NCBI GenBank assembly: GCA_963826115.1
Contig: CAWGVS010000010.1
Location: 512,001 to 576,000 of the forward strand
Length of the DNA: 64,000 nucleotides
Source of the DNA: an uncultured Candidatus Rokubacteria bacterium
GTDB taxonomy: Bacteria; Methylomirabilota; Methylomirabilia; Rokubacteriales; DASRDR01
Direction: 5' to 3'
Shown here one piece after another: positions 54,561 through 61,124 of the stretch. Both the position numbers and the translations under genes were made by a program. Under the pieces are notes generated by a model. The model had not been told where the DNA came from. It did not search any database and worked only from the letters and a program-made list of their open reading frames with translations. The first letter of the stretch is position 1. The number at the start of each line of letters is the position of its first letter.

Positions 54561-56654
54561 TCAGTCGCTATCGAGAAGGCTGCCGACCTCAAACGGCTTC
54601 GGAGCCTTCGCTGGAGCCTTGGCGGCGGTTCCCGGCAGGATCTCGAAGTCGGGGGTGAATCCGACGAGGCTCGTGCGCAACTGGTCGAACCCCTTGCGGT
54701 CGCCATCGAACTTCGCCTTGCCGGCCGCGATCAGATCGTCGAACGACGACAGTCCCATCATCACCTGGTTCAGATCCGCGCGGTTGACGGTGATCGTGAG
54801 ATCCGGCTTCGGCGCCAGAAAGCCCTCGATGTTGGTCAGCGTCGCGTTGGAGACCTCGATTGCGTACTTCTCGCCGTTGTCGGGCGTGACGAGGTTGATG
54901 GAGGTCCTGATTCCCGCGGCCTTCGTCGGATCCAAGCTGATGCCCACGAAGTCGAGAAACTGGCCCGTGGTCATGGCGCGCACCACGTCCGGTCCAGTCG
55001 ACCGTGCCGCTACGCCGCCCGACAGACCGGAGCGCAGTTCGAACGCCCCCATCAGGAAGGCGTTGCGCACGCTCGTGCTTTCCGACTGGTATCCAAGCTG
55101 CTCGTAGGCGTCGGCCAGCAGATCGCGGGCTGGCCGGTTCTGATGCTCGGCAAGCACGAGCCGGTTGAGAATCTCGACAGCGGCAAGGTACTTTCCCTGG
55201 TCCATCAAGTCCCGGCCCTTCGTCATGATCTTCGCGGAGCCACCCATCATCTCGACGTACAGCGGCGCCGCGTCCTGCGGCGAGAGCGGGACCAGGTTGG
55301 CCGGATTGCCGTCCCAGTGGCCGAGGAAGCGGTTGACCACGCCACGCACGTTGTTGCGCACATCGCCGTGGTAGCTGCGGGCGGCCCATTGCTGCTGGAG
55401 GCTCTCGGGCACTGTGTAGACGTTGTGGATCTCGTTGATCGTCACGCCCTGATTGACGTAGTGCAGGGTCTGGTTGTTGAGGTTGGCGTAGGTGTCGCGC
55501 TGCGTGCGCAGCACCTCTTGGATGCGCGCGTTGCCCCAGCGCGGCCAGCTGTGCGAGGCGAACATCACCTCGGCTTCCTGGCCAAACACGTAGAGCGCGA
55601 TGTTGAGCTCCTTGGACCAGTTGAGCGCATCGCGTACGCGCGCGCCGCGCAACGTGTAGATGTTGTGGATCGTCCCGGTGAGGTTCTCCGCCGTCCACAA
55701 CGCCTTGAACTGCGGGAAGTAAGTGTGCGCCGCGGAGGGCGCCTCGGTGTCCGGCGTGTCCTGGAACACCATCCTGACGCCATCGAGTGTGATCTCCTCG
55801 AACCGCTTCGAGATCACATGGTTCGGCGCGATCAGCCCGACATGGCCGGCGGGCGTGTTCTTGCCGATCGCCTGGTCCACGTGACCGAATGGGTTACGAT
55901 CCAGCAACACGGCGAACTGCCACTGCGAGCGTCGCGTCATTGCGTTGCCGGCAAAGACGTTTTCCGCAACCGCCGCCTGCATAAAGTTCGATGGCGCGAT
56001 CACCTTGACCTTGCCGCTCAGCACGTCGGCCTCGTCCACCACGCCGCGCACGCCGCCGAAGTGGTCGACGTGCGAATGCGAGTAGATGACGCCCACGACC
56101 GGACGTGTGCCGAGCTTCTCATTGATGAAGGCAAGCGCCGCGCGCGAGGTTTCCGTCGCCGTCCCCGGATCCATGACGATCCAGCCGGTGTCAGACTTGA
56201 CGAAGGTGATGTTGGTGATGTCGAAGCCACGAACCTGGTAGAGGCGGTCGGGCACGACTTCGTACAGACCGAAGGCCATGTTGAGGATGGCCTGGCGCTG
56301 CAGCGAGGGGTGGATGCTCTCGAAGTCATTGCCCGTGAGCAGCCACTGATAGGCCTCCATGTCCCACGCGACGTTGCCAGCATCGGCCATGATCTTCTTG
56401 AACGGCGGCACCGCGATCAAGCCGCGCTTGTTTTCCTCGAGATCCCGCTCGTCCTGGAACGGCAGCGACGCCTTGAGGCCGTTGCGAAGCGCAAGCGTGA
56501 ACGTGGACGGCGGCTTGCCCCTCGGGTCGAAGTGGCCGGCGGGCGCCGCCGGCTGCTGAGCGAGCGCGTTGTTCGTCATGGCAAAGGAAACGCCAACCGC
56601 GACGGCGACGCCGGTGGCGGCCAGTCGTTTCGTGAACGAGCGTCTTGCGTTCAT
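54561..56654 (-). CDS. Alkyl sulfatase (SdsA1/BDS1 family: MBL fold, dimerisation and SCP2 domains)
   Basis: NARRSF Tat-like signal; HPSLQRQA, YQVRGFD, YSHSHVDHFGG, HNIYTLRGA.VRDAL.W, SHSWP; GAGG RBS. Confidence 0.93.
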   Translation of the reverse strand: MNARRSFTKRLAATGVAVAVGVSFAMTNNALAQQPAAPAGHFDPRGKPPSTFTLALRNGLKASLPFQDERDLEENKRGLIAVPPFKKIMADAGNVAWDMEAYQWLLTGNDFESIHPSLQRQAILNMAFGLYEVVPDRLYQVRGFDITNITFVKSDTGWIVMDPGTATETSRAALAFINEKLGTRPVVGVIYSHSHVDHFGGVRGVVDEADVLSGKVKVIAPSNFMQAAVAENVFAGNAMTRRSQWQFAVLLDRNPFGHVDQAIGKNTPAGHVGLIAPNHVISKRFEEITLDGVRMVFQDTPDTEAPSAAHTYFPQFKALWTAENLTGTIHNIYTLRGARVRDALNWSKELNIALYVFGQEAEVMFASHSWPRWGNARIQEVLRTQRDTYANLNNQTLHYVNQGVTINEIHNVYTVPESLQQQWAARSYHGDVRNNVRGVVNRFLGHWDGNPANLVPLSPQDAAPLYVEMMGGSAKIMTKGRDLMDQGKYLAAVEILNRLVLAEHQNRPARDLLADAYEQLGYQSESTSVRNAFLMGAFELRSGLSGGVAARSTGPDVVRAMTTGQFLDFVGISLDPTKAAGIRTSINLVTPDNGEKYAIEVSNATLTNIEGFLAPKPDLTITVNRADLNQVMMGLSSFDDLIAAGKAKFDGDRKGFDQLRTSLVGFTPDFEILPGTAAKAPAKAPKPFEVGSLLDSD

Positions 56655-56953
56655 CGTCTTTTCCTCGGAGGCCTTGTGCGGCCTTGTTCGTCTGTGGGAG
56701 CCGACTGCCGCGGACTCCACTGTCAATGATTCCCCCAAGAGGGGCCGTCTCCCGTTTCCCAGGGGGGGGGGCCCTCCGTAGGCGCCAGGCGATGATCGTG
56801 AGCCAATTGAGCCTTCGCTCCTCCGACCCCGCGGCACCGGCCGCCGGCGACCGGGAACAGCCGCACGATGAAGGTCAGGGGCCGGGGCGGTCATCTTGTC
56901 TCCGCCCGAGGTATCGGATGGCCGGCGTCAAAACTGGCGTCAAAGGGCGCTAG

Positions 56954-57345
56954 TACCGTGTCCCAGAAAGTCCACCCCACCTTACCGGTGCAAGGGGTAG
57001 CCCTTGAAGGTCCACCGGAAGGGGCGGCTGGTACGGTTCCAATGACGGACGAAGCGGACGATCCGCTCGGCTCGGGCCTCGTAGGTCGCATCGCTGGCCG
57101 GGGCGAGGGCCTGCCGCTCGAGGATGCTGAACCAGATCTCGACCTGATTGAGCCACGAAGCGTGCAGCGGCAGAAGCTCGAACTGGACCCGGCCATCCTG
57201 GGCCGCGACCCACGCTCGCACCGCCGTGGCCGTATGGATCGAGAGATTGTCCAGGATGATGACCAGCCGGCCGCGGGGCCATACCCGATCTTCCACGCGT
57301 TCTCACGGCTGAGCTACCCTGGGGTCGAACTTGTGGGACACGGTA
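56954..57345 (-). mobile_element. Internally deleted IS630-family element (392 bp including flanking TA)
   Basis: Ends TA-CCGTGTCCCAGAAAGT and TA-CCGTGTCCCACAAGT inverted; carries only the transposase 3' part. Confidence 0.88.
56982..57296 (-). pseudogene. IS630 transposase C-terminal fragment
   Basis: IILDNLSIH, LP.HASWLNQVEIWFS, PFRWT; HTH and first catalytic Asp missing. Confidence 0.88.
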
Positions 57346-57531
57346 GTCCTCGTGCTCGATCGTGTGGATCTGGGTTGGATGCTCGCGGGACCGGCCCGAG
57401 CGGGGTTCAGGGGATCGCGAAGCGCGCGGCCCATTCCGCGAACGCCTTCAGGAATGTCGCGAGAAGGCCGCGCGGGGTCTCGTAGCCCTCCGGTCCGCCG
57501 CCGGGACGCGGCCGGCGCCCCTGATGGCGCA

Positions 57532-59185
57532 TCAGCGCCTCTCCGTCGGAGCGTCCGCGAGCACGGTGTGGAGCTGTGGCACCACCGCGGCGCCCTCGCC
57601 GATCGCCCCGCCCACTCGCTTCGCGGACCCGGCAGCGGACGTCGCCGATCGCGAACACGCCCGGGATGCTGGACTCGAGCGGTAGCGGGCGAGGCTGGTG
57701 GTCGTCCGCTCCCGTCCGGACGAAGCCCTCCGTGTCCAGCGCGATCCCGCACTCCCGGAGCCAGCCCGTCGCCGGCTCGACGCCCACGAAGAGGAAGACG
57801 TGTCGGATCGGGAGCTCGGTCTCGTCGCCCGTCGTGTCGCGGCGCCAGCGCACCTGGGCGAGATGGGATCCTGGTCCGGGAGTCAGCCGGGTCATCTCGG
57901 TCCGGGGCAGGACCTCGATGTTGGTCGTCGCCTCGATGCGGTCGACGAGATAGCGCGACATGCTCGTGTCGAGGGACTCGTGCCGGACCAGGACCGACAC
58001 CTTCGCGGCGAAGCCGGACAGGAACACCGCCGCCTGGCCGGCCGAGTTGCCGCCCCCGACCAGCGCCACGTGCTCCCCGCGGCAGAGACGCGCCTCGACC
58101 GGCGAGGCCCCGTACCAGACGCCGCGGCCCTCGACGGCCTCGAGGCCGGGAATGGGCGGCCGCCGGTAGCGCGCCCCGCAGGCCACGACGATCGTCCGGG
58201 CCCTGACGCGGCGCCCGTCCGTCGTCTCGAGAGTGAACGGAAACGTCGCGCAGTCCAGTCGCGCGACGGGGCTCGGGATCACGATCTCGGCTCCGAACTT
58301 CTGCGCCTGCACGAAGGCCCGGCCGGTGAGGTCCTGGCCTGAGATGCCCTCCGGGAAGCCCAGATAGTTCTCGATGCGCGAGCTCGCCCCCGCCTGGCCG
58401 CCGAACGACCGGCTCTCGAGCACGATCACCGACAGTCCCTCGGAGGCGGCATACACGGCCGTCGCGAGCCCCGCCGGCCCCGCGCCGACCACCGCGACGT
58501 CGTACGTCCGGTCGAGATGATCGACGCGCACCATGCCGAGGGCGCGAGCGAGATCGACCTCGGTCGGGTTCCTGAGCACCGATCCGTCGGGGCAGACCAC
58601 GACCGGCAGATCGGCGTCGTTCGCCGCGTGGTGCTCGAGCAGGGCCGCCGCCTCCCGATCGACGGCGGGATCGACCACGCGATGCGGGCCGGCATTGCGG
58701 GCGAGGAACCCCTGGAGACGGACGACGTCCGGATGGACGGCTGGCCCGATCAGGACGGGGCCGCCCCCACCGGTCTCGATCAGGCCGACCCGGCGCAGGA
58801 GTAGCGCGCGCATGATCCGCTCGCCGAGCTCGGCCTCCGCGATCAGCACGGTGCGCAGCCCGTCGGCGGGGATGACGAGCACGTCGGCGTCGCGCGTGGC
58901 TCGCGCGTCCACGAGGCGGGGCTGGCCCGCCAGCATGCCGGTCTCGGCCAGGAAGCCGCCGGCGCCGAGCTCGATGATCGGGACGACCTGGCCCAGACCG
59001 CCCCGGGCGCTGACGTCGACGGTGCCGGAGAGGAGCACGAACATGCCGGAGCCGACGTCGCCGGTCGTGACGACCGGCTCGCCGGCCGCGTAGCGGCGGA
59101 CCGTCCCGAAACGCCGAAGTCGGTCGATGTCCTCCGGGCCGAGGCTCGGAAACATCTGGCCGAGGCGAGGGTCAGGGTCGGGCAC
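57532..59185 (-). CDS. cNMP-binding domain + thioredoxin reductase-like FAD oxidoreductase, frameshifted near the C-terminus
   Basis: MFPSL cNMP domain; VVGAGPAGL, GGQAGASSRIENYLGFP, VGGGNSAGQAA; one extra base at 57634 splits GDVR from AGSAKRVGGAIGEG. Confidence 0.85.
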
Positions 59186-59194
59186 GGTCCAGGC

Positions 59195-60193
59195 TCACGC
59201 GGGTCGTGCCTCGCCCGAGGGTTGCCCGCTCTCGAGCGCCGGGATCGCCGGCGGTGTCACGCCGCGGACCGGGAAGCCCAGAGACATCCACCGCGCGACG
59301 CCCCCCTCGAGGGGGTGGACGCGCGTGATCCCTCGTCGCTCGAGCAGGAGCGCCACCCGGGCGCTCGTGGCTTCGTTGGGTCAGGCGCAGTAGAGCACCA
59401 GCTCGCGATCCCGCGGGACGTCCGCCAGGTGCTCGTCGAGCGCCTCGGCCTTGATCCAGCGGCTGCCCGGGATCGCGAACGGGGTGGCGACCACGTCGAG
59501 CGCGGTGCGGACATCGAGGATGGCCACGTCCTCCCCGGCGTCGAGCTTCTGCTTGAGCTCGTAGGGCGAGATCCGGGCGATCCGGAGCCGATGGAGGAAG
59601 AGGCGGCGCCGCACGTACTTGAGCAGCACGTAGCCGACGAGAGCCGCCACAACCAGGACTCCCGCGGTGCGCCCCAGGGAGGCGACGCGCTGGGCCACCA
59701 CCTCGATGGTCTCGCTGAAGACGTAGCCCAGCCCCGCCCAGAGCCCCGCCCAGAGGAGCACGCCGGCGAGGTCGTAGAGCACGAAGCGGAGGCGGGACAC
59801 GCCGAAGATCCCCGCGAGGGGCGGCATGACGGTGGTCAGGCCCGGCAGGAACTTCGCCACGAGCAGCGCGCGGACGCCGTGGCGCAGGAAAAGGTTTTCC
59901 GTCCGGCGGACGCACACGTCGGGCTCGAGCGACAGCCGGCAGAGCCCCGAGAGCACGCGCGCTCCGCGCCGGCGGCCCAGCTCGTGCCAGACGAGGTCGA
60001 CGGGCAGGGTGACCACCGCGATCGCGCCGAGCACCAGCGGCAGGCTGACGCGGTCCTGCGCCGCGAGGGCGCCGACCGCCAGGAGCGCCGGGACCGCGGG
60101 GAGCGGCACCCCGACCTGCTCGGCGACGACGAGGATCGGCAAGATGACGAAGCTGTACCGCTCGAGGAGCTGCACGCTATCGGCGAGGTTCAT
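59195..60193 (-). CDS. DedA/VTT-rhodanese fusion, predicted selenoprotein (in-frame TGA at 59383-59381)
   Basis: DedA motifs EQVGVPLP, VAKFLPG; rhodanese ILDVR, IPGS, VLYCA-TGA-PNEATSARVA...VHPLEGG..RW; 332 aa with readthrough. Confidence 0.85.
59348..59366 (-). promoter_or_regulatory. Putative bacterial SECIS hairpin
   Basis: GAGCGCC-CGGGU-GGCGCUC starting 15 nt 3' of the UGA; G at the second loop position. Confidence 0.7.
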
Positions 60194-60287: not shown

Positions 60288-61124
60288 CTACGACTTGATG
60301 AACGCCAGGAGGTCGGCGTTGATCACGTCGTGGTGCGTCGTGGCCATCCCGTGAGGCAGGCCCTTGTAGACCTTGAGCTGGGCCTTCCGGACCCGCTTGC
60401 TGGAGAGCATCGCGCTGGCGCCGATCGGGACGACCTGATCGTCGTCGCCGTGCATGACGAGCGTCGGCGCGTCGATCCGCTCGAGGTCTTCGGTGAAATC
60501 CGTCTCGCTGAACGCCTTGATGCAGTCGTAGGCGGCCTTGACGCCGCACATCATCCCCTGGCGCCACCAGTTGTCGATGAGTCCCGGCGAGACCTTCGCC
60601 CCGGGGCGGTTGAAGCCGTAGAACGGGCCCGTCGGAACGTCCCGGAAGAACTGCGCCCGGTCGGCCAGCAGCGCGGCGCGGAAGTCGTCGAAGACCGCGA
60701 GGGGCAGCCCGCCCGGGTTGTTTGCGGTCTTGACCATGATCGGCGGCACGGCACCCACCAGGACCGCCTTGGCGACCCGGCCCCTCGCTCGCCCGGCGCC
60801 GTGGCGGCCGATGTAGCGCGCGACCTCGCCGCCGCCCGTGGAGTGGCCGACGTGGACGGCGTTCCTCAGATCGAGCTTCTCGGTGAGCGTCACGAGATCG
60901 TCCGCGTACGTGTCCATCTCGTTGCCGTCCCACGTCTGGGTCGAGCGCCCGTGTCCGCGGCGGTCGTGGGCGATGCACCGGAAGCCGCGCGACGCGAAGA
61001 AGATCATCTGGGCGTCCCAGTCGTCCGCGCTGAGCGGCCAGCCGTGGCTGAAGACGATGGGCTGCCCGGTGCCCCAGTCCTTGTAGAAGATCTGCGCGCC
61101 GTCCTTCGTCGTGACCGTGCTCAT
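60288..61124 (-). CDS. cpo: Non-heme chloroperoxidase/perhydrolase (alpha/beta hydrolase)
   Basis: [44 protein letters not shown]; GGAGG RBS. Confidence 0.93.

Follow-up and report, generated by a model that had tools for sequence, protein, structure and literature searches.

The window, i.e. the whole stretch of 64,000 nucleotides analysed here, carries a gene for a 332-residue inner-membrane protein in which a DedA domain is followed by a rhodanese domain. Judged from sequence comparison, this protein is almost certainly made by decoding an in-frame UGA as selenocysteine (Sec) via the SelA/B/C/D route, with an in-frame SECIS element 3' of the codon. It represents a real and widespread selenoprotein gene that is routinely truncated in annotation. 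Both the recoding and the Sec domain are known; the fresh points are the fusion to DedA, a dithiol in the DedA domain and the presence of the same module on three architectures. The features are listed in Table 1.

Table 1. Features of the dedA-rhodanese locus, its surroundings and related loci
Feature	Position	Strand	Basis or remark
dedA-rhodanese selenoprotein gene	59195..60193	-	332 aa with U271; true stop TGA 59197-59195
In-frame TGA, U271 (Sec271)	59381..59383	-	shared codon, Cys alignment, selB co-occurrence, pN/pS
Bacterial SECIS-like hairpin GAGCGCC-CGGGU-GGCGCUC	59348..59366	-	starts at nt +15 past the TGA
DedA/VTT membrane domain, residues ~1-200	59594..60193	-	Pfam VTT_dom; alignment with canonical DedA
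C85-x8-C94 pair on helix-turn-helix, predicted cytoplasmic face	59912..59941	-	alignments, K/R content, AlphaFold
Rhodanese domain, residues ~203-309, loop C269-A-U271-P-N-E-A-T	59267..59587	-	Pfam PF00581, NF041203, fold
Alpha/beta hydrolase gene, upstream, co-directional	60288..61124	-	Pfam Abhydrolase_1
cNMP-binding / thioredoxin-reductase-like gene, downstream	57407..59185	-	starts 10 nt past the dedA-rhodanese stop
DDE_3 transposase fragment	56982-57296	-	Pfam; downstream of the cluster
Alkyl-sulfatase-family gene	54561-56894	-	downstream of the cluster
Second DedA-rhodanese paralogue, 52% identical	C6:1155478-1156404	+	same TGA and identical 7-bp hairpin
Example protease fusion	L147:1126-2712	-	Pfam confirms domains; 8 loci read
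Example cyclase fusion	L155:1432-2433	-	Pfam confirms domains; 4 loci read

A selenocysteine codon inside the reading frame

Under translation table 11, the open reading frame 60193-59381 (-) ends with VLYCA*. With the TGA read as Sec (U), the frame goes on as PNEATSARVALLLERRGITRVHPLEGGVARW, adding 61 more residues up to the terminal TGA. The initial annotation had proposed that the frame past VLYCA* completes a rhodanese fold. This was borne out by Pfam, in which the Rhodanese match (residues 209-303) spans the TGA; the VTT_dom match covers residues 94-157. An AlphaFold model calculated with Cys at position 271 reached a mean pLDDT of 88.8 and a pTM of 0.80. In structure searches, where the matches returned were to the rhodanese domain throughout, residues 205-312 resembled solved rhodaneses with Z values of up to 16.7 (3gk5, rmsd 1.7 over 100 residues; GlpE, Z 14.6).

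The genome possesses the genes needed for Sec insertion. A cluster of selA, selB and the tRNA-Sec gene is located on contig C8, and selD, with an in-frame TGA of its own, on contig C5. All four genes (selA, selB, selC, selD) score above their cut-offs and the tRNA-SeC has the anticodon tca. Nor is the TGA peculiar to this strain. It occupies column 271 in 28 of 29 relatives' loci, the remaining one having TCA (30 best loci, the window included, among 61 genomes searched), and it recurs in two further phyla, where 24 of 40 loci have TGA and 16 have Cys. A scan of genome contigs with a Cys-containing pattern, several of whose loci repeat those of the 30-loci set, gave Cys at this column in 69 of 80 loci and TGA in 11; YCACPNE in the 69 loci agrees with the Cys motif that the initial annotation had given for DedA-rhodanese homologues. 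Because the genomes counted are related to one another, these tallies cannot be treated as independent. Across 11 orthologue pairs, pN/pS was 0.25-0.50 after the TGA (codons +12 to +39) and 0.24-0.58 in the 60 codons before it, which points to purifying selection going on past the TGA. In a short-read run (X1) that may be the source sample, a contig matched positions 59356-59521 with 0 differences, and contigs of other organisms also pile up over the TGA and the hairpin. Thus the selenoprotein reading of the initial annotation was upheld by the sel genes, the common TGA, the Cys alignment, the coding tail and the conserved hairpin.

In the two other phyla the codon tracks selB, which was found in 28 of 29 genomes with TGA (column 271 was inspected in 24 of these 29) versus 3 of 18 genomes without it. 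The sole TGA genome lacking a selB match has a TGA-containing selD. Among the 61 close relatives, eight have no selB match and seven of these eight have a TGA-containing match of the gene. Five of the seven were examined, giving a TGA-containing selD in 5/5, selA in 2/5 and tRNA-Sec in 1/5; the selB gaps fit assembly gaps, without proving them. One relative, G014, whose genome is 99% complete, has selA and tRNA-Sec (C21 near 225523-228224) and no selB at E <= 1e-60; its selB is perhaps frameshifted in the assembly.

If the TGA were a genuine stop or a sequencing error, the product would be a 270-residue truncated protein or a pseudogene. Databases do carry the truncated form, and a frameshift in the adjoining gene reveals that the assembly is not error-free. 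Against this stand the sharing of the TGA by three phyla, its association with selB, the identical short-read contig, the purifying selection downstream and the frozen hairpin. We regard this explanation as very improbable and largely refuted already. The truncated entries are numerous, as the initial annotation had anticipated: of the 120 homologues listed, 90 terminate at YC[S/A] when that of the window is counted (89 of 119 without it). In the remaining 30 the column is Cys (14), Ser (12) or neither (4). Among clusters at 50% identity, 32 of 150 end at the TGA codon. The database names are 'membrane protein DedA with SNARE-associated domain' or 'VTT domain-containing protein'.

The SECIS hairpin and its conservation

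The hairpin following the TGA consists of a 7-bp stem closed by a 5-nt loop, in which position 2 is G and position 3 is G or U; UGA and loop are 21 nt apart. Compared with the bacterial SECIS model of Zhang and Gladyshev, as given with four geometry constraints in Fig. 2 of PMC13188914, it agrees in all four, including a hairpin 16-37 nt downstream and G[G/U] in the loop, and shows no substantive difference from this consensus. The folding energy of the hairpin alone is -12.1 kcal/mol. For the 96-nt region the folding energy was unremarkable (z = -0.87), and folding energy was dropped as support for a SECIS element because of this value. A search of Rfam yielded no match. Following random TGA triplets of this genome, a 7-bp bSECIS-like hairpin occurred in 315 of 5643 cases in any register and in 8 of 5643 in the register seen here. 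By itself, the hairpin is no better than chance; it is its conservation that raises it above chance. The SECIS-like hairpin of the initial annotation hence stood with respect to position, loop G, fit to the model and conservation, but is unremarkable taken alone.

The conservation is evident from the codons. In 32 distinct TGA sequences, Ser+6 was AGC in 32/32, Ala+7 GCC in 31/32, Val+9 GTG in 28/28 and Ala+10 GCG in 32/32. Arg+8 was solely CGG, CGT or AGG, so that G[G/U] is retained in the loop. The mean synonymous entropy was 0.05 bits at the stem codons +6, +7, +9 and +10, compared with 1.33 bits (minimum 0.70) at 25 other columns, and the 6-bp core was paired in 32 of 32 TGA sequences versus 4 of 70 non-TGA sequences; these values come from the first set of loci, which are kin, with stem columns chosen from the window's hairpin. 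A two-sided change from C-G to U-A at synonymous positions was present in 4/4 cyclase fusions (see below) and, counted by eye, in seven among the 150 pattern matches listed. None of these 150 had a mismatched pair, although the pattern tolerated one; 105 further matches exist. Taken from such comparisons, the hairpin appears to be under selection at the RNA level. In the other two phyla, a 5-bp core was found in 12 of 24 TGA loci and loop G[G/U] in 24/24, while the Cys loci gave 2 of 16 and 8 of 16, respectively, suggesting that the SECIS stem is often shorter outside the window's phylum.

Known relatives, distribution and genomic context

The best NCBIfam match of the rhodanese domain was NF041203 (rhodanese_LYCAU) with 83.6 bits against a cut-off of 115; the relatives scored 66-85 bits. 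In the 2026 inventory of 119 families (PMC13188914), NF041203 is the 'form 3' (CxU) Sec rhodanese, with predicted status and without experimental verification. Its representative TKB26178.1 is a stand-alone protein with the motif LYCAUPNE (PMC12013277 supplement), and its hydrophobic N-terminus looks like a signal peptide. The window rhodanese has the LYC-x-U-P loop of this family and shares loop and Sec position in the form LYCAUPNE-x-T-SAR. It differs in architecture: the family consists of stand-alone proteins of ~126-150 aa, the representative having about 150, whereas in the 332-residue window protein a DedA domain of 200 residues precedes the rhodanese, for which a cytoplasmic orientation is predicted. 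The window protein would work like a form 3 Sec rhodanese, though it misses both the cut-off and the architecture of NF041203. Sec rhodaneses are thus known, as the initial annotation had said, and the C-x-U form is catalogued with a nearly identical motif, so that novelty is confined to the DedA fusion.

Fusions of the Cys type have also been described, and the role of their rhodanese is called unclear in PMC9881974/PMC10127716 and PMC12893004. Pseudomonas aeruginosa PA1209 and the Collimonas/Herbaspirillum proteins have the same architecture (PF09335 + PF00581). The Collimonas protein is 44% identical over 302 aa, with C85, C94, C269 and C271 all present. Unlike in these proteins, Sec replaces the second loop Cys in the window protein, accompanied by a SECIS element. 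DedA, VTT and SNARE are absent from the main text of PMC13188914, from the four supplements of PMC12013277 and from the main text of PMC9312934. A literature search by title and start of abstract returned nothing on a Sec DedA-rhodanese, though supplements outside that search could list the fusion; the view that this protein is functionally uncharacterised agrees with the literature searched.

The catalytic residue of the loop may be either C269 or U271: among solved structures, the loop Cys aligns with C269 in 3tp9, 5ve3, 6pfz and 3nhv, and with position 271 in 6mxv and 3iwh. Counted from C269 the loop has eight residues (ungapped with BH2092, 3nhv), counted from U271 six. A six-residue loop ending with Arg, Thr or Ser is described for active rhodaneses in PMC8533005. 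For a Sec rhodanese family, PMC1976440 reports a UxU form, so both loop positions can be redox-active; we infer that this family is the same as the one treated here.

The pattern C-x-TGA-P plus hairpin occurred in 168 of 251 genomes of the phylum (reversed control: 0), counting every architecture, DedA fusions among them. The full-length gene was present in 37 of 200 genomes of a sample centred on Blastocatellia records, one unpublished genome being left out (25 with internal TGA), and in 10 of 121 genomes of a sample centred on Nitrospirales records (4 with internal TGA). In a tree of 128 rows, the Sec rows are interspersed with several groups that have Cys and with one clade that has Ser/Ala (14 rows, support 98), a pattern suggestive of repeated Sec loss in the family. 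The tree gives a hint only: it was built with a quick method and midpoint root, predates the loci of the two other phyla, and contains L037 and L067, whose N-termini are probably spoiled by frameshifts. The clade with Ser at 271 comprises L036 (TCA, hairpin still intact), the proteins P0056, P0068 and P0074, and others. The Cys forms L065 and L066 retain the hairpin, too. The Ser clade and these Cys forms probably represent recent losses of Sec.

Further fusions carry the C-x-U module. In L145-L151 and L156, a trypsin-like protease is followed by a membrane helix and, at the C-terminus, by a rhodanese that carries YC[T/S]-TGA-PDE and has its SECIS core in common with the DedA fusion. This protease fusion, searched with a query lacking the last 27 residues, had matches in 36 of 61 genomes, 26 of them with internal TGA and none in the window's family; within family f2 they were found in 36 of 37 genomes. 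In L152-L155, an N-terminal rhodanese with YCS-TGA-PGE and again this SECIS core is fused to an adenylate/guanylate (class III) cyclase-like domain, and 10 full-length TGA matches of this kind occur among the 251 genomes. At L041:1266-2811 (+), the DedA-rhodanese frame continues stop-free into another rhodanese, which has a C-A-TGA-P and a hairpin of its own; this may be a protein with two Sec residues, or the stop ahead of a stand-alone gene may have been lost. In the genome of the window, two more rhodanese-like stretches with an in-frame stop in the loop region were seen at C5:920606-920896 and C5:319143-319289 (VVLY*ACP, CWDSA*D).

The upstream hydrolase gene has counterparts near the locus in close relatives only (G002, G003, G011, G012, G014, partly G008). 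A gene similar to the downstream cNMP/TrxB-like one adjoins the homologue in L051, L063 and L070/L072. In the window, this downstream gene is frameshifted close to the 3' end, so that the tail to be expected lies in another frame, and no CxxC was seen where thioredoxin reductases usually have it. It is in frame with the dedA-rhodanese gene, separated by a single TGA stop. Read-through of this second TGA into the TrxB-like gene was considered and rejected, as the tail is not conserved, no hairpin lies in SECIS register and the two genes are in different frames in L063; the shared frame is probably due to chance. Among the shared-neighbour clusters, one gene is presumably Dps-like, and no conserved operon was detected beyond close kin. 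The scan for promoters and terminators yielded nothing informative.

The membrane dithiol and possible functions

The two cysteines C85-x8-C94 of the DedA domain were invariant in 48 of 48 aligned rows and the C-x8-C pair was found in 120/120 close homologues; each cysteine was present in 140 of 150 cluster representatives. In the AlphaFold model, the pair lies on a helix-turn-helix made of helices 78-87 and 91-113. The mean numbers of K/R were 6.9 in segment 71-107, 5.2 in segment 192-206 and 1.5 in segment 158-176. By the positive-inside rule, the K/R-rich segments 71-107 and 192-206 place both the dithiol and the rhodanese probably on the cytoplasmic side. A restriction of C85/C94 to rhodanese fusions was considered and rejected: 4 of 6 DedA-only paralogues examined keep the pair, which is hence independent of a fused rhodanese. 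The DedA-only proteins L159-L162, having the C-x8-C pair, possibly form a cysteine-bearing DedA subfamily.

Four residues, Glu39, Asp51, Arg130 and Arg136, are tied to the flipping of UndP in PMC10127716. The window protein shares with the COG0586 flippases (YghB, YqjA, UptA) the DedA/VTT domain and, among the re-entrant residues, one that is acidic, E25 (kept in 76 of 150 representatives), and one that is basic, K114 (K/R in 143 of 150). Unlike UndP flippases of COG0586, it has no equivalents of Asp51 and Arg136, so that acidic pair (Glu39/Asp51) and basic pair (Arg130/Arg136) are each incomplete. In the 150 representatives, the Asp51-equivalent column (V34) contains no conserved acid and the Arg136-equivalent column 120 (T120 here) is S/A/N/G/T. 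The residues were mapped via the canonical DedA of this genome, C8:91886, on the basis of a flippase motif whose identity we partly assume. The canonical protein has all four residues and no Cys pair, which sets it apart from the window protein.

Because evolution has placed selenium at this site, the C269-x-U271 loop is probably redox-active. Our leading proposal, to which we give somewhat less than an even chance, is a switch built on selenium, of the redox or sulfane-sulfur type, in exchange with the dithiol of the DedA domain. The cytoplasmic loop C269-A-U271 would act as a thiol/selenol pair and react with sulfane sulfur or another oxidant, yielding a persulfide or selenenylsulfide. This oxidised state may then be exchanged with the dithiol C85/C94, predicted to lie on that side of the DedA domain, and the exchange would switch or load a DedA-type transporter other than a standard undecaprenyl-phosphate flippase. 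Selenium would accelerate the chemistry and not be essential, as Cys and Ser forms persist. In favour of this mechanism, 235 of 274 aligned homologues (effective number ~190) have C85, C94 and C269 as well as Cys/TGA271; C269 without Cys/TGA at 271 was found in 19 of the 274 rows and the reverse in 3. The occurrence of the module on a protease and on a cyclase-like domain, a sensor-like pattern, counts for it, as do the stress and redox genes in the neighbourhood (pirin in 20 loci, TrxB-like, presumably Dps-like). The 14-member Ser/Ala clade, which has kept the protein and lost the residue at position 271, counts against it, and so do the C-x8-C pair in DedA-only paralogues and a neighbourhood conserved in close kin only.

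We ranked this switch above three other explanations. It is possible, though doubtful, that the protein is a transport-coupled transferase whose DedA domain imports selenite or a sulfur oxyanion while the rhodanese traps persulfide or perselenide for cytoplasmic acceptors, Sec being catalytic and not sensory. The rhodanese fold is indeed nearest to single-domain sulfurtransferases, and a loop counted as U271-P-N-E-A-T would have six residues with Thr as the last, of the kind described in PMC8533005. Yet no gene of sulfur or selenium metabolism appeared in the 24 shared-neighbour clusters scanned, of 45 listed, and a module carried by a protease and a cyclase-like domain is ill-suited to a delivery role. 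Less probable still is binding of a soft metal or metalloid (Zn, Cu, Hg, As) by the four thiol/selenol groups in a metal-gated or metal-handling transporter. Four co-conserved Cys/Sec residues on one predicted face would suit such a site, NCBIfam gave a weak match to ChrE, a rhodanese of chromate resistance (34.9 bits against a cut-off of 120), and a DedA has been linked to indium extrusion (PMC8679861); however, the annotated shared neighbours include no metal-resistance genes, and the C85/C94 pair is also found where the rhodanese is missing.

The least likely of these functional readings is that of an ordinary undecaprenyl-phosphate flippase of COG0586 which carries the rhodanese as an accessory. 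COG0586 does include rhodanese fusions, as stated in PMC10127716, and the residues at E25 and K/R114 are retained to the extent given above. The columns equivalent to Asp51 and Arg136 are not conserved as acid or base, though, the UptA and DedA equivalogs score 30-46 bits against cut-offs of 236-300, and the genome encodes its canonical DedA elsewhere.

Beyond the DedA fusion, the C-x-U rhodanese might serve soil bacteria as a portable sensor module based on selenium, with one cassette of Sec codon and SECIS element attached to a DedA transporter that has a cytoplasmic dithiol of its own, to a membrane-anchored trypsin-like protease and to an adenylate-cyclase-like domain; we consider this broader idea rather unlikely on present evidence. 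If true, sulfane-sulfur, redox or selenium status would be coupled to transport, proteolysis and second-messenger output, and selenocysteine would serve signal transduction instead of catalysis.

For the family itself, the gene corrects a common mis-annotation in which truncated entries lose the active-site loop, and it extends a small stand-alone form of Sec rhodanese to a fusion with a membrane domain that occurs in three or more phyla. It offers a handle on a point of DedA biology, the role of rhodanese fusions, which PMC10127716 describes as unclear, and the conserved dithiol of the membrane domain is a testable partner of the loop. Since the cultured genera Collimonas and Herbaspirillum have Cys versions, the mechanism could be tested without growing Rokubacteriales.
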